Virus record (IMG/VR): IMGVR_UViG_3300031951_000234
Location: 1 to 51,591 of that record
Reading direction: 5' to 3' (one strand)
DNA from: a virus
Lineage: Duplodnaviria; Caudoviricetes
Length of the DNA stretch: 51,591 nt
Shown here: positions 2,464-43,702 of the stretch, piece by piece
Layout: every line of letters starts with the position of its first letter
How positions within the stretch are numbered: position 1 is the stretch's first letter
Translations under genes and position numbers: made by a program
Notes under the pieces: generated by a model
What the model was told of the DNA's origin: nothing
The model's input: only the letters and a program-made list of their open reading frames with translations
The model's database searches: none

Positions 2464-3212
2464 TGGCACTGATGATCGACGCAACGATGCCGCGCGACTT
2501 CTCGGGCCAGACGGCGAACGAGATTGTCTCGGGTTTCGTCAGCGTCCGCACGTTCGGCGCCAGGGAAGTTGCCCAGGCACTGGAAAGGATGGCAATTCGC
2601 GCCGGGCAAGACCCAGGAAGGCTCAAGGCCAGGGCGGCGACGAAGGCAGCCAAGATCATCGAGAAGGCGTACAAGGACAAGATCCGCAACGTCACGGGGA
2701 ACCTCGGCAAGTCGATGACGACGCGGATTCGACAGTACGACGGCGCGACCGTGGCCGTCACGGGGCCGCGTGTGACTGGTGCCGTCGGCGCTGACCCAGA
2801 GAAGGGAAGTGGTAATCACAGTTGGCTCCTTGAGTTCGGCACGGGGCCGCGAAAGCCAGGATCACAGAGCCGCCGCGCGTATGTCAACGTGCATCAGGCG
2901 ATCAACGGCCGTATGAAGAAGGTCGGCGGCTTCAATAACTCCCAGTTTGAGAAGATGGGCCGAGGCTACTACTTCCTCATGGGAAGCAAGAACGAGCCGA
3001 CGCGGCAGGCCAAGGCGGGGAGCGGATATCCGCACGATTTCCTCCCTGACGGCAAGGGAGGAACGCGGCCGTTCTTTCTTCGGCCCGGCGAGACATACGG
3101 TGCCATGCCGGCCCAGCACACGATGGAGCGAACGATTTCAGAGAACTCCTCGGCTGTCATGGCCGCCCTGATCGCAAATATGCAGGGATACATTGACGAG
3201 TTGTCGAAATGA
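2463..3212 (+). CDS. HK97 gp10-like neck / tail completion protein
   Basis: TGNLGKSM, HSWLLEFGT and MPAQH motifs; position after head closure. Confidence 0.75.
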   Translation: MALMIDATMPRDFSGQTANEIVSGFVSVRTFGAREVAQALERMAIRAGQDPGRLKARAATKAAKIIEKAYKDKIRNVTGNLGKSMTTRIRQYDGATVAVTGPRVTGAVGADPEKGSGNHSWLLEFGTGPRKPGSQSRRAYVNVHQAINGRMKKVGGFNNSQFEKMGRGYYFLMGSKNEPTRQAKAGSGYPHDFLPDGKGGTRPFFLRPGETYGAMPAQHTMERTISENSSAVMAALIANMQGYIDELSK

Positions 3213-3634
3213 TCATCAAGCCAGAGGACTACATCTATTTCCGGCTGGTGTCGTCGCCGGCCGTGGCAAGGATCGTGGGCTTCAACGTCTACCCGATCGC
3301 CGTGCCTAAGTCGGCCGGGTTTCCGTTCATCGTTTACAAGCGGCAGAACATCATTCGAGAGTCGAGCCTGACAGGGCCGATGTTCATGCCGCTCCTGTCG
3401 ATTCAGGTGGCCTCCTGGGCCATGTCGCACGACGCGGCAAGGGAACTAGGGGACGAGGTTCGCCTTGCTCTGGATGGCAACACCGGCACTGCCGCCGGGG
3501 CTACAATACAAGATATGAGGCTAGTCTCCGAGACGGACGACTACCTCGACCCCACGGCCGTCGGAGCACAACTCCCGCCGGCCTACGAGGTCAGGCAACT
3601 GTATCAAATCAGGTGGCAAGAAGCCGCTTCGTAA
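3209..3634 (+). CDS. Tail terminator (DUF3168 / gp17-like)
   Basis: VG..VYP...P....PFIVY, QV..WA....A..L...VR.ALDG. Confidence 0.85.
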   Translation: MIIKPEDYIYFRLVSSPAVARIVGFNVYPIAVPKSAGFPFIVYKRQNIIRESSLTGPMFMPLLSIQVASWAMSHDAARELGDEVRLALDGNTGTAAGATIQDMRLVSETDDYLDPTAVGAQLPPAYEVRQLYQIRWQEAAS

Positions 3635-3672
3635 CCTACAGGTCACGACACTAGCGCAAGGAGGCGCGACAC

Positions 3673-4008
3673 ATGGCTGGAGTTTCCGCACAGGGGCTGA
3701 CGTTCTCGTTCGGCGGCACGACCCTCACCGTCACCTCGGTTCAGGTCAATGACACGCAGGATCTCATCGACGGCAGCCACCTGGGCATCGCCCCGAACGG
3801 CAAGCGGGAGTACGTCGGCGGCTTCGCGACCGACCGCGAGGTGCAGATCGATTACATCTCGACGAACGTGCTGTCTGCCGGCACCAGCGGCGCGCTGTCC
3901 ATCACCGGCCCAATGTCCTTCAACGGCAACGCGACTCTGTCGTCGGCGTCGATCGGCGGCTCCGTTGGCGCCCTTATCAGCGGGAGCGCGACCTTCCGAG
4001 TCGCGTAA
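3673..4008 (+). CDS. Short tail-tube-like protein 1
   Basis: Strong RBS AAGGAGG; position after terminator; ID.SHLG, GSATF motifs. Confidence 0.65.
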   Translation: MAGVSAQGLTFSFGGTTLTVTSVQVNDTQDLIDGSHLGIAPNGKREYVGGFATDREVQIDYISTNVLSAGTSGALSITGPMSFNGNATLSSASIGGSVGALISGSATFRVA

Positions 4009-9334: not shown

Positions 9335-9703
9335 GTGGCAGACATCAGTTACAGCGTGTCGTACAGGGTATCGAAGGACTTCCTCAACGCCCAGGTGGCG
9401 GCCGGGAACATCACGGCCACCATGACCCTCACAGGGCTACAGACCCAGACTCTGACGCTCTCGACGAACGCCGTCAACATCTCGACGGCGAATCTGGGCC
9501 AGGTCGGCCTGGCGTTCTTGCAGAACCTCTCCACGGCCACGGCGTCCACCTGCGCCATCGGCATCGAGGCCGGCGGCTCGTTCGTCGGCTTCACGACCCT
9601 GCGGGCCGGCGAGCCGGCGATCCTGCGGATGACGCCCGGCACGTCCTACTCGGCCAAGGGCGTCAGCGGCACCCGGCTCCGCGTGGACATTACGGAGGGC
9701 TGA
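9335..9703 (+). CDS. Putative tail structural protein
   Basis: RBS AAGGAG + GTG; beta-rich; follows tape measure. Confidence 0.55.
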   Translation: MADISYSVSYRVSKDFLNAQVAAGNITATMTLTGLQTQTLTLSTNAVNISTANLGQVGLAFLQNLSTATASTCAIGIEAGGSFVGFTTLRAGEPAILRMTPGTSYSAKGVSGTRLRVDITEG

Positions 9704-20227: not shown

Positions 20228-21085
20228 CTACCCCACCTTCGGAATGACATCCGGCGCCGCCTTCCCCTTGACCACGCGCGGGTCGAGGTAGCATCGCGTC
20301 GTCTGCGGGCTGGCGTGATCGAGGAGCCGCTGTGCCGACCCGCCTCCGGCCTCGTAGTATGAGGCGGTTGTTTTTCGGATCTTGTGGAACTTGTCCTTCC
20401 TCCCGGCGGGCAGCCCGGCACGCTTCAGGATGATCTCCAGCCGCTTCCAGAGGTATGAGCGGCCTCTGGGCCACGGGAAGACGAGGTCGTCAGGCCCGCG
20501 GTCGCCGCGGATGGCCGCAAGCGCCGCGGCCGTCGTCTCGCTGATCTCGCGGTATACGTCGGCTCGACGACCCTTGCGATCCTCGGCGATGAACAACACA
20601 GCGCCGCCCTTCACGGCCCGCCACCTGATGCTGACCATGGCAGTGCATCGCTCGCCAGTGTCGTAGGCGAGAAGCAGCAATGCCCGCCACCACAGGCCAC
20701 CCGGGATGCCGTCGAGCATCGTCTTCTCCTCCCCGGCCGTGACTAGGAGACGCTGAAACTCTTCAGTCAGCCAGCACTCCGGCACACGGCGGGGAACGCG
20801 AATCAACGGGATCGCCGGCCAAGTGTCCACCAGTTTCCGGCGAGCGGCGAACTCCCACAGCGCACGCAGTTGGCTGCGGTCTTTCGCCGCGGTCGCCGCA
20901 GCCCGCTGCCTGACGCGATGCGCCAGGAAGCGGGCCACGGTCACCTCCTCCAGATCGTCAAGAGTCGGCGGTCTGCCGAGGTACTTGGCGAACGGATTGA
21001 TCGTCATCTGGTAGATCGACCGCGTCCTATCACTCACGCCCTTCAACGGCGCGTACACGTCGTCAAGAAACTGTTGCAGTGTCAT
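20228..21085 (-). CDS. Tyrosine recombinase / integrase
   Basis: SAM-like N-domain; catalytic R (TGER), K (RKG), HxxR (HKIR), H (LDH), Y (TRCY). Confidence 0.9.
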   Translation of the reverse strand: MTLQQFLDDVYAPLKGVSDRTRSIYQMTINPFAKYLGRPPTLDDLEEVTVARFLAHRVRQRAAATAAKDRSQLRALWEFAARRKLVDTWPAIPLIRVPRRVPECWLTEEFQRLLVTAGEEKTMLDGIPGGLWWRALLLLAYDTGERCTAMVSIRWRAVKGGAVLFIAEDRKGRRADVYREISETTAAALAAIRGDRGPDDLVFPWPRGRSYLWKRLEIILKRAGLPAGRKDKFHKIRKTTASYYEAGGGSAQRLLDHASPQTTRCYLDPRVVKGKAAPDVIPKVG

Positions 21086-21122
21086 GGTGGCAAACCCCCA
21101 ACAAGGTGCCACCTCCATGCGT

Positions 21123-21326
21123 CTACGACACCCCCACGTCATGTGGCGGGCGACAAAAAATGTTCGTAATCCGACAGCGTGGATAGGTCATTCTGAACTT
21201 AGCGACCCAGATGGCGCGGGCCATCCTCTCTGCCTCCTTGGCAGACCTCGCCTGCACCACAAACTCGTCAGTGTCCTCCACGTCTCCGTCAATCCAATCA
21301 ATCAACGCGACCCATACCATCGTCAT
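21123..21326 (-). CDS. Hypothetical protein upstream of the integrase
   Basis: RBS AAGGAGG before ATG; 67 aa. Confidence 0.55.
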   Translation of the reverse strand: MTMVWVALIDWIDGDVEDTDEFVVQARSAKEAERMARAIWVAKFRMTYPRCRITNIFCRPPHDVGVS

Positions 21327-33745: not shown

Positions 33746-34854
33746 TCCGCTGCGGCGAGCCACAGATCGGCGAGGCCGAGATCGCAGCCGTCACCGACGT
33801 GCTGCGGGCGGGGAACCTCACCCGCGGCGAGGAGTGCGAGCGGTTCGAGCGGGCGCTGGCCGAGCAGTTGAACGTCCGCGGCGTGCTGGCCGTCTCAAGC
33901 GGCACGGCGGCCCTGCACCTGGCCCTGCTGGCCGTCGGCGTCCAGCCCGGCGACGAGGTGATCATCCCGGCGACGACGTTCGTCGCCACGGCGAACGCGG
34001 TGCTCTACTGCCGCGCGAAGCCGGTGGTCGTGGACGTTGACAGCACGACGTGGACGATCGACGTGGGCCAGGCCATTCGGGCGATCACGAAGAAGACCAG
34101 GGCGATCGTCCCGGTGCATCTCTACGGCGTTCCGGCCGACGTGGGCGGCCTGCTGCTCGTCTGCGACGACCACTACGCCCGCACGGGCCGCCGGATTGCC
34201 ATCGTCGAGGATGCCGCCGAGGCGATTGGTGCGATGCACATGGGCCGAGAGGTCGGCGCCATCGGCGATGCGGCGGCCCTCTCGTTCTACGGCTCGAAGA
34301 CGATCACGACCGGAGAGGGCGGCGCTGTCATCTGGCACGACGGCCGCGTCGGTCTGCGGGCCTGGCATCTCCACGGCCAGGCGCAGTCCGCGACGAAGCG
34401 CTACTGGCACGAAGCGCTTGGATACAACTACCGCATGACGGAGATGCAGGCGGCCCTCGGCCGCGTGCAGTTGGAACGGCTCGAAGTGTTCCTCGAACAC
34501 CGCCGCCAGGTGTTCGCCTGGTACGACGAGATGCTTCCGCAGACGTTCAAGCGACAGGGCGTCGTCGAGAGCGACCGGCACGGCTGCTGGGCCTACGCCG
34601 TGGTCAAGGAGTACAGCGGCGAGATGAACGCGCAGAAGACGGCACTCGCGCTGCTGGAGGCCGGCATCGAGACGCGGCCGATCTTCTACCCGCTGTCGCG
34701 GTTCCCGCACTTGGCCGGAACCAGCAGCCGCGACCACTACGTCGCGCACAGACTGAACAAGCATGGCCTGGTGCTGCCAACGCACTGCGGCCTGACCCGA
34801 GAGGACGTTGAGAAGGTATGCCAAGAGTTAAGAAAAGCCGCGTGCTGTTCGTAG
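33742..34854 (+). CDS. DegT/DnrJ/EryC1/StrS PLP sugar aminotransferase (perosamine synthase-like)
   Basis: SSGTAALHLAL, PVHLYG, EDAAEA, SFYGSKTITTGEGG, GYNYRM. Confidence 0.93.
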   Translation: MIRCGEPQIGEAEIAAVTDVLRAGNLTRGEECERFERALAEQLNVRGVLAVSSGTAALHLALLAVGVQPGDEVIIPATTFVATANAVLYCRAKPVVVDVDSTTWTIDVGQAIRAITKKTRAIVPVHLYGVPADVGGLLLVCDDHYARTGRRIAIVEDAAEAIGAMHMGREVGAIGDAAALSFYGSKTITTGEGGAVIWHDGRVGLRAWHLHGQAQSATKRYWHEALGYNYRMTEMQAALGRVQLERLEVFLEHRRQVFAWYDEMLPQTFKRQGVVESDRHGCWAYAVVKEYSGEMNAQKTALALLEAGIETRPIFYPLSRFPHLAGTSSRDHYVAHRLNKHGLVLPTHCGLTREDVEKVCQELRKAACCS

Positions 34855-35690
34855 GCGGCGGCCGCCGCGTCGGGCTGGCGAGGCTGTTCATCGAGCGCGG
34901 CGCGGCGGTGTACGCCTACGAGTCGAGCATCGACCAGCCCATAGCCGACGTGGCGAAGGAGGTGCTCGTCGGGCTGGACTTCGATGACCCCCAATGTGGG
35001 GAAGATATTTCTGCGTTCGTGGAACGCAGAAATATCACCCACATCGTCCCGCTAATGGACGAGGCGACGGTGGTCTGCGGCGGCCTTCCTGGGTGCATCG
35101 GCCCGCCGGCCGACGTGGCGATGCTCTGCCACGACAAACTTCACTACGCCAATTGGATGAAGGAGCATCATCCAGACCTGTATCCGACGCCGTCGATGCT
35201 CCGGTATCCGAAGTTTGCGAAGCCCCGGTTCGGCCGCAGCGCGCGGGGGACGAAGATCCTGAACCGTCCAGAGACGATCGAGATGAGTTCGGCCTGGGTG
35301 ATACAGGACTACCTCGAAGGCGACGAGGTGTCGGTGGACGTGTTCCTCCGCGGCGGCGAGTGCCTGGGCGGCGTGGCCCGCAGCCGCGACCGCGTCGAGG
35401 GCGGGGAGGTGGTTGAATCCAGGGTACTCCCTGCCGAGCAGGGAGTACCGTTGATCCTCGACGCCGCCGCCGTCGCCACCGACCTTGGCATCGTCGGCCC
35501 GGCCAACGTGCAGTTCAGGGGCGGGAAGATCATGGAGGTCAACTGCCGCTTCGGAGGCGGGTGCGTGCTCTCCGTCGCCGCCGGCTTCGACATGGTCGCG
35601 CTGGCCTTGGGCCAGAAGACCAACGGGCCGCCGTGGACGGTGACGCACGGCATGACGATGCGTCGGTATCACGCGGAGAGTTTTCGATGA
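34818..35690 (+). CDS. ATP-grasp protein (CPS-like, polysaccharide-cluster type)
   Basis: GGGRRV, CHDK, KPRFG.SARG, IQDYLEG.EVSVD, EVNCRFGGG. Confidence 0.85.
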   Translation: MPRVKKSRVLFVGGGRRVGLARLFIERGAAVYAYESSIDQPIADVAKEVLVGLDFDDPQCGEDISAFVERRNITHIVPLMDEATVVCGGLPGCIGPPADVAMLCHDKLHYANWMKEHHPDLYPTPSMLRYPKFAKPRFGRSARGTKILNRPETIEMSSAWVIQDYLEGDEVSVDVFLRGGECLGGVARSRDRVEGGEVVESRVLPAEQGVPLILDAAAVATDLGIVGPANVQFRGGKIMEVNCRFGGGCVLSVAAGFDMVALALGQKTNGPPWTVTHGMTMRRYHAESFR

Positions 35691-35947
35691 GCGACGACAT
35701 CGTCAACAGGCTGCGTGACCGGGCCTACAGCGGCAAAGTTCCAGACAGCCTGTCCGATGAGGCGGCGGCCGAGATCGAGCGGCTGCGGTCGCTGACGCGG
35801 TTTCAGGATGGCGTCATTCGCAGCGGCGACGTGGCGTGCCTGACACAAGCGGAGCGTGAGGCGTTGGAGGTGGCGTCAGTATGGGTGAACCCAGAGAGGC
35901 ACGCCACCCTGCGCGGCCTGCTGGAGCGGCTGGGAGGCCACCAATGA
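35687..35947 (+). CDS. Hypothetical protein, LT.AEREA...ATLRGLLERL family
   Basis: MSDDIVNRLR..EAAAEIERLR; shared C-terminus with next gene. Confidence 0.65.
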   Translation: MSDDIVNRLRDRAYSGKVPDSLSDEAAAEIERLRSLTRFQDGVIRSGDVACLTQAEREALEVASVWVNPERHATLRGLLERLGGHQ

Positions 35948-36273
35948 CTGACCGCGACACGTTCGCCGCTGCGGCGCTGACGGGGCTTCTCGTCCACGCC
36001 AATGACAGCATTGACGAGGAGACTTTGGACACCCCAAGCGACATCGCGTACACGGCCTACCAGATGGCCGACGCCATGCTCCGCGAGCGCGACCGCACAA
36101 CTCATACGCCTGTAACGGAACCTATGCTCAAAGAAAAACGGACAGAGGGTTCTGCCGTCCTGACCGACGCGGAGCGGGAGGCGGTGCATCAGGCAGCGAT
36201 CCGGGTGGAAGCGTTGTGCCAGCGCGGATCGAAACACATGGCCGCCACCCTGCGCGGCCTGCTGGAGCGGCTG
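35902..36273 (+). repeat. 31-bp exact direct repeat (35902-35932 and 36243-36273)
   Basis: CGCCACCCTGCGCGGCCTGCTGGAGCGGCTG occurs twice, at the 3' ends of adjacent genes. Confidence 0.9.
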
Positions 36274-36291
36274 TCGCCGCCAGCGACATAA
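35944..36291 (+). CDS. Hypothetical protein, LT.AEREA...ATLRGLLERL family
   Basis: RDTFAAAALTGLL..AY.MADAML.ER; shared C-terminus. Confidence 0.65.
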   Translation: MTDRDTFAAAALTGLLVHANDSIDEETLDTPSDIAYTAYQMADAMLRERDRTTHTPVTEPMLKEKRTEGSAVLTDAEREAVHQAAIRVEALCQRGSKHMAATLRGLLERLSPPAT

Positions 36292-36454
36292 GGGACGAAC
36301 GTGTCGCAAAAACGACGAAGCGACGACAAAACACTACGCCAGCCCGCACCGGCTCCGCGCCCTACGGAGTGTTTTCGGGACGGCTGGCAGCCCCTAGGCG
36401 ACACGCAGCCCGACAACGGCTTGGCGACGATGGGACGGGGGCAGTGGTTTTTAC

Positions 36455-36544
36455 GCATAACACGCGAGATCAACAGCCGCGAACAAAGGAGGCGGCACAC
36501 ATGAACGATACGAATGAGCGGTCTGTTGCATCGGATGGTTCGCT
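36455..36544 (-). mobile_element. Integron attC site 1
   Basis: Minus strand: R'' AGCGAAC-5nt-L'' GATGCAAC-AG[A]CCGC...GCGG-CT-L' GTTGATC-6nt-R' GTTATGC; two extrahelical bases at canonical positions. Confidence 0.88.
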
Positions 36545-36920
36545 GGCGAACGCATTGCGGCCAGCGGTGTGGGCGATTCTTAGCGAAAATGGGCAGTATC
36601 GACTCCCCGAGATTGTTGGCGGAGCGAAGGTGTGCAAGTTTTATGGCAATGACAGATACGTTCCGCTGTACGCCGAAGAGACGTTGAACCCTGTGTTGAG
36701 GATTGCGAATGCGTGCGGGAAGTGGATTCAGGTGAGCGAGCGGCTGCCCGAAGACGGCACATGGTGCTGGGTCGATTGGGACGGCCCAGGCGAGCCGTTC
36801 CCAGCGATGCGATGCAGTAGGTCGGCTGGCGGGTGGACGAACACCGACTGCTGGGAAGACTTCGACAGAGAGGTCACGCGCTGGATGCCGCTCCCTGCAC
36901 CACCAATAGACGCCAAGTAG
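36501..36920 (+). CDS. Cassette gene A: DUF551-like protein
   Basis: WIQVSERLPE ... VTRWMPLPAPP; RBS AAGGAGG and ATG lie inside attC1. Confidence 0.8.
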   Translation: MNDTNERSVASDGSLANALRPAVWAILSENGQYRLPEIVGGAKVCKFYGNDRYVPLYAEETLNPVLRIANACGKWIQVSERLPEDGTWCWVDWDGPGEPFPAMRCSRSAGGWTNTDCWEDFDREVTRWMPLPAPPIDAK

Positions 36921-36922
36921 CC

Positions 36923-37013
36923 AGCGAACGCCCGCGATCACCAGCGGCGAACACAGGAGCATGAACATGACACAGGAATCGAATAAGCCGTCTGGTGCAT
37001 CCGGTGGTTATGA
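36923..37013 (-). mobile_element. Integron attC site 2
   Basis: Minus: TCATAAC-CACCG-GATGCACC-AG[A]CGGC...GCCG-CT-GGTGATC-GCGGGC-GTTCGCT. Confidence 0.88.
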
Positions 37014-37188
37014 GCGCGGTCGGATTTGCCCTGTCCCGCCAGATGACCCCGTTGGCCCGTTTGTCGCAGCAATGATCCTTATCCCGCTCGTTGTCTGCTC
37101 GCTGGTTTTTGCCGCGACGGCATTCGGCAACCTGATGGCCTACGGACAGTTTTGCACGCCGCAGCACGGCGTCGTTGAGAAGCCATAA
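36961..37188 (+). CDS. Cassette gene B: small membrane protein
   Basis: RBS AGGAG and ATG inside attC2; hydrophobic segment; stop TAA inside the attC3 core box. Confidence 0.7.
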   Translation: MNMTQESNKPSGASGGYERGRICPVPPDDPVGPFVAAMILIPLVVCSLVFAATAFGNLMAYGQFCTPQHGVVEKP

Positions 37189-37270
37189 CACGCAGGATCA
37201 GCGGCTCGCGACCGCTGACGAAACTACACCGCAGACGGAATCGCGAGTCCGCTGCATCCGCTGGTTCGCA
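37183..37270 (-). mobile_element. Integron attC site 3
   Basis: Minus: TGCGAAC-CAGCG-GATGCAGC-GG[A]CTCGCGA...TCGCGAG-CC-GCTGATC-CTGCGT-GTTATGG. Confidence 0.88.
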
Positions 37271-37273
37271 CAG

Positions 37274-37636
37274 ATGCCATGCAACTCAGACCATCTTGAG
37301 GCGACCCACCTTGAGGCCGAGATGAGCAAGGTCGCTTGCCTGCTGGACGAACTTGACGGAAAGAAGCGAATAAATCGCGACCACTGGCGCGGCTACCACC
37401 CTCGCGTCTACAGTCAGCGGGTGAACGCCGACGAAATGACGGCCGAACTATGCTCGCGCCTTCAGGGCGTGAACGTTTCACAGTGCAGCCTTGAGATGCA
37501 GATTTGGTGGCGCGACCATCAAGAGGCAGACAAGAGGCGAGCCGAGAAAGCGATCAAGAAGGCCAAGACCGAGAAGCAGAAAAAAGCGGCACTCGCGAAA
37601 CTGACTCAGCATGAGCGGAAACTGTTGGGGCTTTGA
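37274..37636 (+). CDS. Cassette gene C: hypothetical protein
   Basis: MPCNSDHL..LC..L..WWRDHQEAD..ALAKLT..ERKLLGL; ATG 3 nt after attC3. Confidence 0.75.
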   Translation: MPCNSDHLEATHLEAEMSKVACLLDELDGKKRINRDHWRGYHPRVYSQRVNADEMTAELCSRLQGVNVSQCSLEMQIWWRDHQEADKRRAEKAIKKAKTEKQKKAALAKLTQHERKLLGL

Positions 37637-37642
37637 TGGGAT

Positions 37643-37685
37643 TGCGAACCAGAATTAGTCCGCCAGTTCGCAGCCTAATTCGGAC
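37643..37685 (-). mobile_element. attI-like / secondary cassette insertion site
   Basis: Core GTTCGCA (minus) exactly complementary to attC3 R''; not followed by an attC fold; nested short inverted repeats. Confidence 0.55.
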
Positions 37686-37736
37686 GAAGGTGCGGCTTTC
37701 GGCCGCAAGAACGATGCGACGGCGGGGAAACAGGAA

Positions 37737-37880
37737 ATGACCACCATCCGCGAGTGGCTGATCGACCTGGCGTTTCTGCGCATCGGCATCGTGCCGCTCG
37801 TGGGCGTAGTGTTGTGTGTCGGCATGATTGTCGGCCTGTGCATCGCAGCCGTGCGGTGCCAGCCGCCGGAGGATTTATGA
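37737..37880 (+). CDS. Small membrane protein (47 aa)
   Basis: MTTIREWLIDLAFLRIGIVPLVGVVLCVGMIVGLC; RBS CAGGA. Confidence 0.55.
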   Translation: MTTIREWLIDLAFLRIGIVPLVGVVLCVGMIVGLCIAAVRCQPPEDL

Positions 37881-38020
37881 GCACCCCGCTGATCCTCATC
37901 GTCGGCGTCGTCTACCTAGCGGTGGCCGTCGATCAGTTCCGCAAAGGCGACACCGGCATGGCGATCGCATGGTTCGGCTACGCCCTGGCAAACGTGGGCC
38001 TCGCTATGGTGGCAAAATGA
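37877..38020 (+). CDS. Small membrane protein (47 aa)
   Basis: LI..VG.VYL.V..DQF.KG..GM...WFGYALANVGL. Confidence 0.65.
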   Translation: MSTPLILIVGVVYLAVAVDQFRKGDTGMAIAWFGYALANVGLAMVAK

Positions 38021-43097: not shown

Positions 43098-43397
43098 ATG
43101 CTAGTGGTGCTGATGGTCATCGTGTTCGCGGGCTGTAGGCCCGCCGAACACGATGACCTCCGTCCATTCGTAGCCGCGGCCGGCTACTACGCGGTCATGG
43201 AGTCGCAGGCCACGCCGACGCCTGCGCCACCGACCCCGAAGCCCGGCCCACGCACATGTGAGAATTGCAACGGCCTCGGGTATCTGACAGACGGCACCGT
43301 GCGAACGGTTTGCCCTGTTTGCAAGGGAAACAAAGTCATCAGCGGAGCAGTGCCATGCCAGAGCGGGACGTGTCGGTCGGTACTTATCGCCCGCTGA
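43098..43397 (+). CDS. Lipoprotein with DnaJ-type CxxCxGxG zinc finger
   Basis: Lipobox FAGC; CENCNGLG...CPVCKG. Confidence 0.65.
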   Translation: MLVVLMVIVFAGCRPAEHDDLRPFVAAAGYYAVMESQATPTPAPPTPKPGPRTCENCNGLGYLTDGTVRTVCPVCKGNKVISGAVPCQSGTCRSVLIAR

Positions 43398-43702
43398 AGG
43401 ATTACGTTCGTCGCCGCGGCGGCATACGTCTTTCCATGCACGGGGGGCTGCGCGAGCGTGTGGTCGAGGAGATCGTCGCCGCCTGGCCCGTCGGCTGCCC
43501 CGTCGAGCACCTAGAGGACGTTGTTCGTGCTCGAATCAGCATTAAGGTCAGGGAGAAGTATGGCAGCGTGATCGCCGTCATACTGCTCTCTGCCTTTATC
43601 AACGTGATCGTGCGTCTCGTCGTCGATTGGTGGCTGGAGCGACACTCGCATCGCGTTCTCATGCAGGGGTGGTCAGATGCCGCGAAGGGTGCCGACGTAT
43701 AG
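43370..43702 (+). CDS. Membrane protein with C-terminal TM
   Basis: YGSVIAVILLSAFINVIVRLVVDWW. Confidence 0.55.
   Translation: MSVGTYRPLKDYVRRRGGIRLSMHGGLRERVVEEIVAAWPVGCPVEHLEDVVRARISIKVREKYGSVIAVILLSAFINVIVRLVVDWWLERHSHRVLMQGWSDAAKGADV

Follow-up and report, generated by a model that had tools for sequence, protein, structure and literature searches.

The locus considered here lies in a phage genome, the IMG/VR record IMGVR_UViG_3300031951_000234, whose 51,591 nucleotides (nt) were analyzed as a whole and are called the window below. Three gene cassettes separated by integron-type attC sites follow one another in it, and the array stops at a short stretch, 37643-37690, in a record in which no integron integrase (IntI) was found. 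This arrangement raises the question of what the terminal stretch does, and of how cassettes could be brought to it. The answer that we favor, with a probability of about 0.55, is that 37649-37690 (on to about 37712) would be a constant recombination site playing the role of attI in an integrase-less phage platform, with a host IntI acting in trans. The parts of the site, with a stroke marking the predicted crossover, are as follows.

37643-37649, + strand: orphan R' box TGCGAAC at the end of the array, where cassette 3 is fused to the site; crossover 37648/37649
37649-37690, + strand: class B site, the candidate attI equivalent, consisting of CAG, a palindrome and CGG
37653-37680: class B palindrome of 11-6-11 layout; left arm 37653-37663, spacer CAGTTC 37664-37669, right arm 37670-37680
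37692-37712, + strand: downstream part, a GC hairpin (GCGGC-TTTCG-GCCGC) and then AAGAAC about 60 nt from the crossover

This site recurs behind different cassettes. The class B core was found in seven viral loci and two metagenome contigs, which together with the window adds up to 10 instances with 8 distinct sequences (L043 is identical to L161, and L157 to L158, in the 117 nt compared). Every instance starts right behind an xxxAAC box, and the cassette end that precedes it varies, the boxes being GCGAAC, GAGAAC, TAGAAC and CAGAAC. The conserved part reads (C/A)AG, an 11-bp arm AATTAGGCTGC, the spacer CAGTTC, the arm GCAGCCTAAT(T) and CGG; the palindrome of the window is degenerate, with two mismatches in its left arm. 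Class B also has an R box and an A/T-rich box, AGAATTAG, at +2 to +9 from the crossover, and in its relatives, as judged by eye, a comparable GC hairpin is present and an xxxAAC motif lies about 57-64 nt from the crossover. A constant site joined to variable cassettes at AA/C, as expected of an attI, is seen in all ten instances and in a contig of the public sequencing run X7, which is 468 nt long, is identical to 37646-37793 and is preceded by another cassette end. The original prediction of an attI-like docking site, conserved among array-bearing relatives, is partly borne out: the site stands on the attI side of a genuine array and recurs at nine other loci, each time behind a different cassette and with a precise junction, and the likeness to attI itself is limited to layout and a few bases.

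The same observations bear on a second explanation, namely that the array entered only once, by an attG-type (secondary-site) or illegitimate event, and that the palindrome is a regulatory or structural element of the genes downstream. In the available part of one report, IntI inserts cassettes at many genomic sites that share only a GWT consensus (bioRxiv 10.1101/2022.09.11.507474), and in the available part of another, inverted GTTRRRY-like motifs and a predicted terminator border a phage cluster of attC sites lacking an integron integrase (CALIN; PMC9892861); the site region here also lies directly upstream of conserved small genes. However, nine different cassette ends meet the site at the same base, and the bases common to the junction number only three (AAC), too few for homologous exchange to account for the variable cassette ends. 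The same architecture recurs in 32 distinct sites of a sister class, one empty site retains its R' box, and simple pattern scans, which are weak tests, detected neither a sigma-70-like promoter in 36200-37900 nor a terminator-like site at 37643-37690. We therefore regard a passive boundary as unlikely. The secondary, attG-like site that the original prediction offered as an alternative is likewise made unlikely, because at least ~30 nt of the site are conserved in nine other loci and the site has been used repeatedly. The class B palindrome was also considered as a host attachment site and rejected as such: among the 401 Planctomycetota genomes sampled, one contains it, but with a mismatch and a spacer that differs.

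The sister class, class A, whose layout is reminiscent of attI1, terminates most of the other arrays in this phage group. Terminal sites were sought downstream of the last attC as a box complementary to that attC; 57 of 88 loci have such a box, and most of the remaining 31 are cut off at the locus end. The 32 distinct class A flanks read AAC, CAGTGTTTCT, CGG, CCG and ATAAC in succession, with further (G/T)ATAAC repeats, and their subclasses open with CACATTTATA or TTGTCATTAT. Many of them have a CGGCCGCGAAACG stretch which, by eye, is related to the GC hairpin of class B. Taken as a conserved hairpin, the class A palindrome pairs in 76.6% of cells and its covariation score was matched by 8 of 500 shuffles, which is modest support for it as a structure. 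In one relative, L163 (from a 34-kb record rated 100% complete), the conserved element found on the left of the window array is followed directly by an R' box and then by a class A site, and 6.6 kb of sequence contain no attC. It is an empty site, of class A rather than of class B, so that the predicted empty allele does exist among relatives for the sister class. Two other loci tried as empty alleles, L023 and L089, were rejected, as a methyltransferase gene, not an array, lies there between the ATP-grasp and HAD genes.

Variants of the locus also appear in public sequencing data, as 20 of the 23 listed runs (16 studies) contain all or part of the stretch. Four runs were examined as contigs, and stretches uncovered in X7 and X15 were not counted; since these are contigs and not raw reads, they indicate that variants exist and nothing beyond that. 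In run X1 a contig of depth 266 connects 36923 with 37644, so that cassette 1 ends right beside the site. The summed contig depth in X1 is 2,700-3,900 at the attCs (36470-36576 and 37112-37325) against ~105-125 in unique phage sequence, and this ~25-35-fold peak shows that the attC types are common to many genomes in the sample. Apart from these, a contig of depth 12.3 in X7 joins 35933 to 37737 with one letter between, so that the 3' end of an open reading frame (ORF) like that at 35687-35947 stands directly before the first of two ORFs of 47 amino acids (aa) that follow the site in the window; it may represent a relative without both array and site.

The three repeats of ~89 nt upstream of the site are true attC sites.

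36455-36544, + strand (= bottom strand): attC 1; R' box GCATAAC, crossover 36460/36461
36923-37013, + strand: attC 2; R' box AGCGAAC, crossover 36928/36929; loop with AGGAG and ATG
37183-37270, + strand: attC 3; R' box CCATAAC, crossover 37188/37189

Their 3' arm motif has three copies in the window, against 0.06 expected. On the + strand the 5' half of each repeat consists of xxxxAAC, six unpaired nt, GAT, a 6-nt stem, at least three paired nt and the loop, and the 3' half of the partner with an unpaired T, an unpaired C 6 nt on, ATC, five unpaired nt and GTTxxxx. In the available part of Nivina et al. 2016 (PMC5027507), an attC bottom strand has 5'-RYYYAAC, extrahelical bases opposite the AAC (usually G16 and T23) with a 6-bp stem between them, and central unpaired spacers of 5-6 nt. 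The three repeats have the R'/R'' boxes (AAC...GTT), the L'/L'' stems and the 5-6-nt spacers, and in every copy two extrahelical bases lie six paired bases apart; the sole departure from the published geometry is a C where a G is usual. The 6-nt stems vary compensatorily (CAACAG/CTGTTG, CACCAG/CTGGTG and CAGCGG/CCGCTG). attC 1 is represented in the repeat families D1, D4 and D12. attC 3, a long near-perfect hairpin whose loop has no ATG, is very similar to attCs of arrays on contigs of Planctomycetota metagenome-assembled genomes (MAGs), and is the only one of the three that is exceptional as a folded single strand (z -4.63 and -5.01 against shuffles), attC 1 and attC 2 folding no better than shuffles.

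The structure was also followed beyond the window, in an alignment (A1) of 91 elements from the window, viral contigs and bacterial MAGs. In A1 98.6% of cells pair, against 15-42% with a slid partner, and five pairs change on both sides, with the caveat that the elements were chosen partly by the 3' arm and a matching 5' arm, and thus by part of the structure; one pair outside this selection occurs as CG (31), GC (24), UA (19) and AU (11). The covariance model of A1, R1, among whose training elements are the three window repeats, scores them at 82.9 (attC 1), 75.1 (attC 2) and 68.7 bits (attC 3), and elsewhere in the window it finds nothing else convincing. A weak attC-like match on the minus strand at 43325-43412 (13.9 bits, E 0.031), near a switch in gene orientation, may be a decayed attC or chance. 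Among viral contigs the 3' arm motif matches at least 118 stretches, and R1 finds 274 attCs in 118 viral loci, on a single strand in each locus; of the attCs called by a structural detector, 401 were on the array strand and 5 on the other, with up to 15 in one locus.

R1 also settles the orientation of the array. It recovers the three attCs of a class 1 integron on an E. coli plasmid (24.8, 19.4 and 16.5 bits) on the intI1-coding strand, the cassette genes being annotated there on the strand opposite the R1 matches, and it matches arrays adjoining intI in three genomes. The order along the R1 strand is array, attI, intI in two Pirellulaceae integrons and one Burkholderiales integron, and it is the same in the class 1 control. 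From this order in real integrons and in the control it follows that the + strand of the window is the attC bottom strand, and that the attI side of the array is its right end. With three attCs in an IntI-free record of 51.6 kb, the array is a CALIN.

The three cassettes of the original prediction are confirmed, with boundaries at AA/C in each case.

36461-36928: cassette 1, 468 bp; ORF 36501-36920, + strand, DUF551 protein
36929-37188: cassette 2, 260 bp; ORF 36967-37188, 73 aa, hydrophobic
37189-37648: cassette 3, 460 bp; ORF 37274-37636, + strand, phage family phrog_11759 (E 1.9e-30)

The crossovers that delimit them are 36460/36461, 36928/36929, 37188/37189 and 37648/37649, and the R boxes alternate along the array (CATAAC..GTTCGC, GCGAAC..GTTATG, CATAAC..GTTCGC, and then TGCGAAC). 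The own two ends of each cassette are complementary over 6-7 nt, whereas adjoining ends are not, which is the signature of separately mobile cassettes: GTTCGCT in the attC of cassette 1 is complementary to AGCGAAC at its right end, GTTATG in that of cassette 2 to CATAAC, and GTTCGCA in that of cassette 3 to TGCGAAC at 37643-37649. The ORF of cassette 1 matches PF04448 (E 9.6e-9) and phrog_924 (E 2.1e-12); that of cassette 2 found no family in family and phrog searches; that of cassette 3 has a relative of 69% identity in L048.

Within the terminal stretch, the end of the array at TGCGAAC and the string at 37643-37690 are present as first described, and so are the three inverted repeats that had been pointed out: TGCGAAC (37643-37649) with GTTCGCA (37666-37672), GAATTAG (37652-37658) with CTAATTC (37675-37681), and GTCCG (37658-37662) with CGGAC (37681-37685). 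The second of these is conserved, within the longer palindrome; the other two are not. TGCGAAC turns out to belong to the end of cassette 3 rather than to the site, varies in relatives and does not keep its match to GTTCGCA, and GTCCG/CGGAC has to be dropped as a feature of the site. Of 12,886 segments of 48 nt sampled from this genome, 100 (0.78%) contain two distinct perfect 7-nt inverted repeats, a density that is unusual, not extreme.

It could be argued from such figures, with ~0.8% of 48-nt segments holding two 7-nt inverted repeats, from fold scores that are unremarkable, and from the resemblance of TGCGAAC..GTTCGCA to an R'/R'' pair, that the stretch is a decayed terminal attC or a functionless chance cluster of short inverted repeats. 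However, R1 has no match on 37643-37690, only 16 nt lie between the two boxes, and the left box varies while the right part is kept over ~30 nt in nine other loci. The stretch is not an attC, as the original prediction had stated, and we consider decay or chance a very improbable account of it.

If the site does act as an attI, an enzyme has to be named for it, and the record offers one tyrosine recombinase.

20228-21142, - strand: tyrosine recombinase, the only one in the record, 304 aa, Xer/phage-integrase type; PF00589; phrog_1, integrase

This protein has a SAM-like, Xer-like N-terminal domain and a catalytic domain. Its best matches are generic Xer models at ~50 bits. The claim that the only recombinase of the window lacks the IntI-specific insertion holds, as there is a single PF00589 match, no TIGR02249 match and, in an alignment, no trace of the ~29-residue IntI-specific block; the window thus holds no complete integron, which would include an intI with the IntI-specific domain. 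TIGR02249 gave no match above the family cut-off in the window, in any of 5 complete array phages or in any of 50 further array-bearing records (one 17-bit match was seen among the 50, and 12 of all 56 records are at least 90% complete), in agreement with the predicted absence of IntI from the phage, which extends to the 55 other array-bearing records. At least 476 viral contigs do encode IntI, and the best 80 of them have no phage-type attC (R1 at most 38 bits). On the bacterial side, IntI above the cut-off was found in all five of five MAGs with the same attC family, which by title are Pirellulaceae, Phycisphaerales, two Pirellulales and one betaproteobacterium, and arrays with as many as 12 R1 matches occur on contigs of Planctomycetota MAGs (some of these sequences are in the R1 training alignment). 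The IntI geometry preserved in the attCs, the lack of IntI in the phages and its presence in the candidate hosts together make a host IntI the probable enzyme.

The resident recombinase nevertheless allows a different assignment, in which the site keeps its role and the phage's own ~300-aa tyrosine recombinase moves the cassettes, the palindrome being its core-type site and the platform self-sufficient. Among 11 complete records with an array or an empty site, ten (L043, L071, L056, L004, L019, L024, L090, L096, L160 and L163) encode a single PF00589 recombinase of 297-422 aa, which is above the cut-off in 8 of them, and the window protein has the two domains just described. The class B palindrome, with 11-bp arms and a 6-bp spacer, is laid out like the core sites of dif/lox type, and folded single-stranded phage DNA is a substrate of Xer recombinases. 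In addition, the spacer is flipped (GAACTG, not CAGTTC) with unchanged arms in two of the eight distinct class B sequences, L159 5976-6092 and L162 13995-14111 (both minus strand), and is thus inverted relative to the cassette side, which would fit a recombinase acting within the palindrome. Against this, the window protein has no IntI-specific block, its gene is 16.5 kb away from the site, and the attCs, which are of the family found in host integrons, retain both extrahelical bases in the geometry of IntI substrates. L052, a complete array phage of 204 kb, has no PF00589 match at E <= 0.001, and an integrase of such size is ordinary lysogeny equipment. We regard the phage enzyme as a live alternative for moving the cassettes, though a rather improbable one.

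Under the reading that we prefer, the folded bottom strand of an attC (the + strand of the window) would recombine with the site, strand exchange taking place between A and C at 37648/37649, and the cassette would enter there. Cassettes would pile up leftward from the site, and entry at this point implies that the newest cassette would adjoin the site while the oldest would end at 36460/36461, beside the left element. The integron integrase of a Planctomycetota host would presumably supply the activity in trans, during infection or lysogeny, and the cassettes might then be expressed on the main phage transcription strand by means of a translation start borne by the attC.

Several points weigh against this reading. 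Adjacency to an integrase gene is a defining trait of attI, and the site lies away from any such gene, not between intI and a first cassette. Its likeness to attI1 and to three real attI junctions from Planctomycetota or Burkholderiales is confined to layout and a few bases, judged by eye, and class B, unlike class A, has no clear ATAAC/xTAAC repeats. Shuffled sequence folds as well as 37643-37690 does as a single strand (z -0.59 for the + strand and -1.19 for the - strand), the arms of class B show no compensatory changes, and the flipped spacer is a feature of which the attI reading gives no account. No empty class B allele was found in viral or metagenome contigs, where all assessable instances are occupied, so that the one empty allele found is of class A. 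The evidence for cassette turnover in sequencing runs is at the level of contigs and includes short one-sided matches, as at the X1 joint, which has 24 letters on its shorter side and six letters that fit either side. With the record ~91% complete, an intI gene could be missing from it, and the PF00589 recombinases of the complete records offer another candidate enzyme. The host is assigned by MAG binning and attC similarity alone. Recombination itself, binding, the parts that matter and the enzyme that acts are all deduced from sequence comparison.

The direction in which the cassettes are read is a further peculiarity of these arrays. The genes of cassettes 1 and 3 run on the attC bottom strand (the + strand of the window), and cassettes 1 and 2 have a Shine-Dalgarno motif and an ATG inside the attC loop. 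In the viral loci 161 of 189 cassettes have their longest ORF on the bottom strand, and 159 of 252 attCs have an in-loop ATG with an ORF of at least 30 codons beyond the attC, 136 of these with a Shine-Dalgarno-like motif; the first ~15 codons of such cassette proteins are encoded by the attC itself. This gene direction is the reverse of that in the class 1 control. In a separate observation, the stop codon of cassette ORFs in many loci tends to fall within the following R' box (TGAGAAC, TAGAAC, CATAAC, ..AAGTAGCCACAGAAC) or immediately ahead of it, as at 36918-36929 and 37183-37189 in the window, where the stop TAA of cassette 2 sits in the next R' box; in such cases recombination box and stop codon overlap. 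In the integron paradigm a promoter on the attI side drives cassette expression, and cassettes on the bottom strand with a start built into the attC would, if confirmed, be a second departure from it.

It would be tempting to generalize these patterns. A widespread group of phages, probably infecting Planctomycetota, may keep an integrase-less platform with at least two classes of docking site and a private pool of small, reversed cassettes, in which genes are swapped by a host IntI; most relatives would carry cassettes at the site and one or more would have it empty, the attC would double as ribosome-binding site, start codon and N-terminal code, and the cassettes would be expressed by phage read-through, in an orientation opposite to that of bacterial integrons. 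This broader idea is tentative, and we would put it below even odds.

The surroundings of the array are those of a phage. The record, which is linear and ~91% complete according to CheckV, encodes the following among other products, and the site lies in the early/replication region of the genome.

Encoded in the window: tail-completion and tail-fibre proteins, repair exonuclease, dNMP kinase
Also encoded in the window: SNF2 helicase, primase-polymerase, UvrD helicase
34818-35690: ATP-grasp gene, left of the array
36380-36452, + strand: conserved left-flank element, just ahead of the array
37737-37880 and 37877-38020, + strand: two 47-aa membrane-type ORFs, in the position of intI in an integron

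To the left of the array are the ATP-grasp gene, two small paralogous ORFs and three small ORFs; to the right of the site the two 47-aa ORFs are followed by a HAD-type gene and a methyltransferase gene. The 47-aa ORFs matched no family in a family search, and the second has relatives near arrays at 15 other loci. A search of viral contigs through the flanking ATP-grasp protein gave no relatives by that route, and relatives were found instead by tblastn among the fetched loci. In Rfam, 36200-37900 gave one sub-threshold chance match only. The core of the left element (20 nt) is almost invariant in 32 viral contigs, mostly away from arrays; the element stands ahead of the array both in the window and in L109, and in L163 the empty site follows it directly. 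It can be read as a peptide (..QPDNGLAT..), yet shows almost no synonymous change, and it was rejected as a structured RNA, its fold (z +1.65) being no better than shuffles. The CAGTGG in the left flank of the window was likewise rejected as a class A site, being part of this element.

Two side observations concern possible remains of cassettes. The overlapping neighbors 35687-35947 and 35944-36291 both end with an identical 31-nt repeat (family D3), their relatives lie inside or beside cassette arrays elsewhere, and they may be fossil cassettes whose attCs have been lost. In L076, an attC-free unit of ~250 nt (~9415-9665), bounded by two CACAGAAC boxes, separates the class A site from the last cassette that bears an attC.

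Among known systems, attI has an arrangement similar to that of the site. Like attI1 of the E. coli plasmid, it lies at the integrase-proximal end of the array when the attC bottom strand is read, its first cassette is joined exactly at AA/C (G/TT on the other strand), and an A/T-rich box opens 3-5 nt after the crossover (GTTTTAG at +4 to +10 in attI1, the AGAATTAG box noted above in class B). Read in the same orientation, attI1 continues after AAC with TTTGTTTTAGGGC and then with CGTAAC and CATAAC repeats, and class A has, like attI1, further xTAAC repeats ~20-50 nt away; the window class has a long palindrome with a 6-bp spacer instead of clear direct repeats. In a real Pirellulaceae attI, seen twice with different first cassettes, the junction reads AAC followed by TTGTTATTCACCC, which opens with TTGTTATTCA; a class A subclass opens with TTGTCATTAT. 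The alignment with Planctomycete attI sites that the original prediction called for thus yields, by eye, a shared layout and a few bases and nothing more. Unlike an attI, the phage site has no intI beside it or anywhere in the phage.

Cassette insertion outside a classical integron, into a double-stranded site with no neighboring intI, is also a property of attG sites, and in the available part of Loot et al. these are very numerous and have only a GWT consensus with small flanking motifs (bioRxiv 10.1101/2022.09.11.507474); the phage site differs in being ~30-60 nt long, conserved across phages and used repeatedly. The promoter-stem-loop (PeSL) modules of T4-type phages offer a further parallel, as small accessory genes between repeated structured elements are shuffled among relatives there. 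In contrast to PeSL, the repeats considered here have the full attC geometry, belong to the attC family of host integrons and form junctions that are site-specific at AAC.

The nearest precedent is phage CALINs, which are likewise attC arrays without intI in phage genomes. In the available part of their paper, Qi et al. 2023 described 17 CALINs in phages, demonstrated recombination of five phage attCs with attI1 in the presence of IntI1 provided in trans, and reported inverted GTTRRRY-like motifs at array borders, with no mention of a conserved docking site in phages (PMC9892861). A literature search, which covered listings and the passages cited here, found no paper on a conserved attI-like site in integrase-less phages and none on reversed cassettes with a start codon in the attC. 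To our knowledge, phage attC clusters have so far been scattered cases without a defined insertion site, and integrons are regarded as bacterial platforms. If our reading is right, viruses maintain a gene-capture platform of their own and depend on a host enzyme for it, the cassette pools of host and phage are linked, and the hypervariable accessory-gene region of a phage group from freshwater metagenomes is accounted for. Compared with the available description of phage CALINs (PMC9892861), the present loci add a terminal site conserved in many contigs, cassette turnover and an empty allele, together with up to 15 attCs per locus, bottom-strand cassette ORFs and a start inside the attC. We conclude that attC clusters without an integrase in phages are of a known kind, and that the conserved candidate docking site, the turnover of cassettes at it and the reversed cassettes appear to be new.

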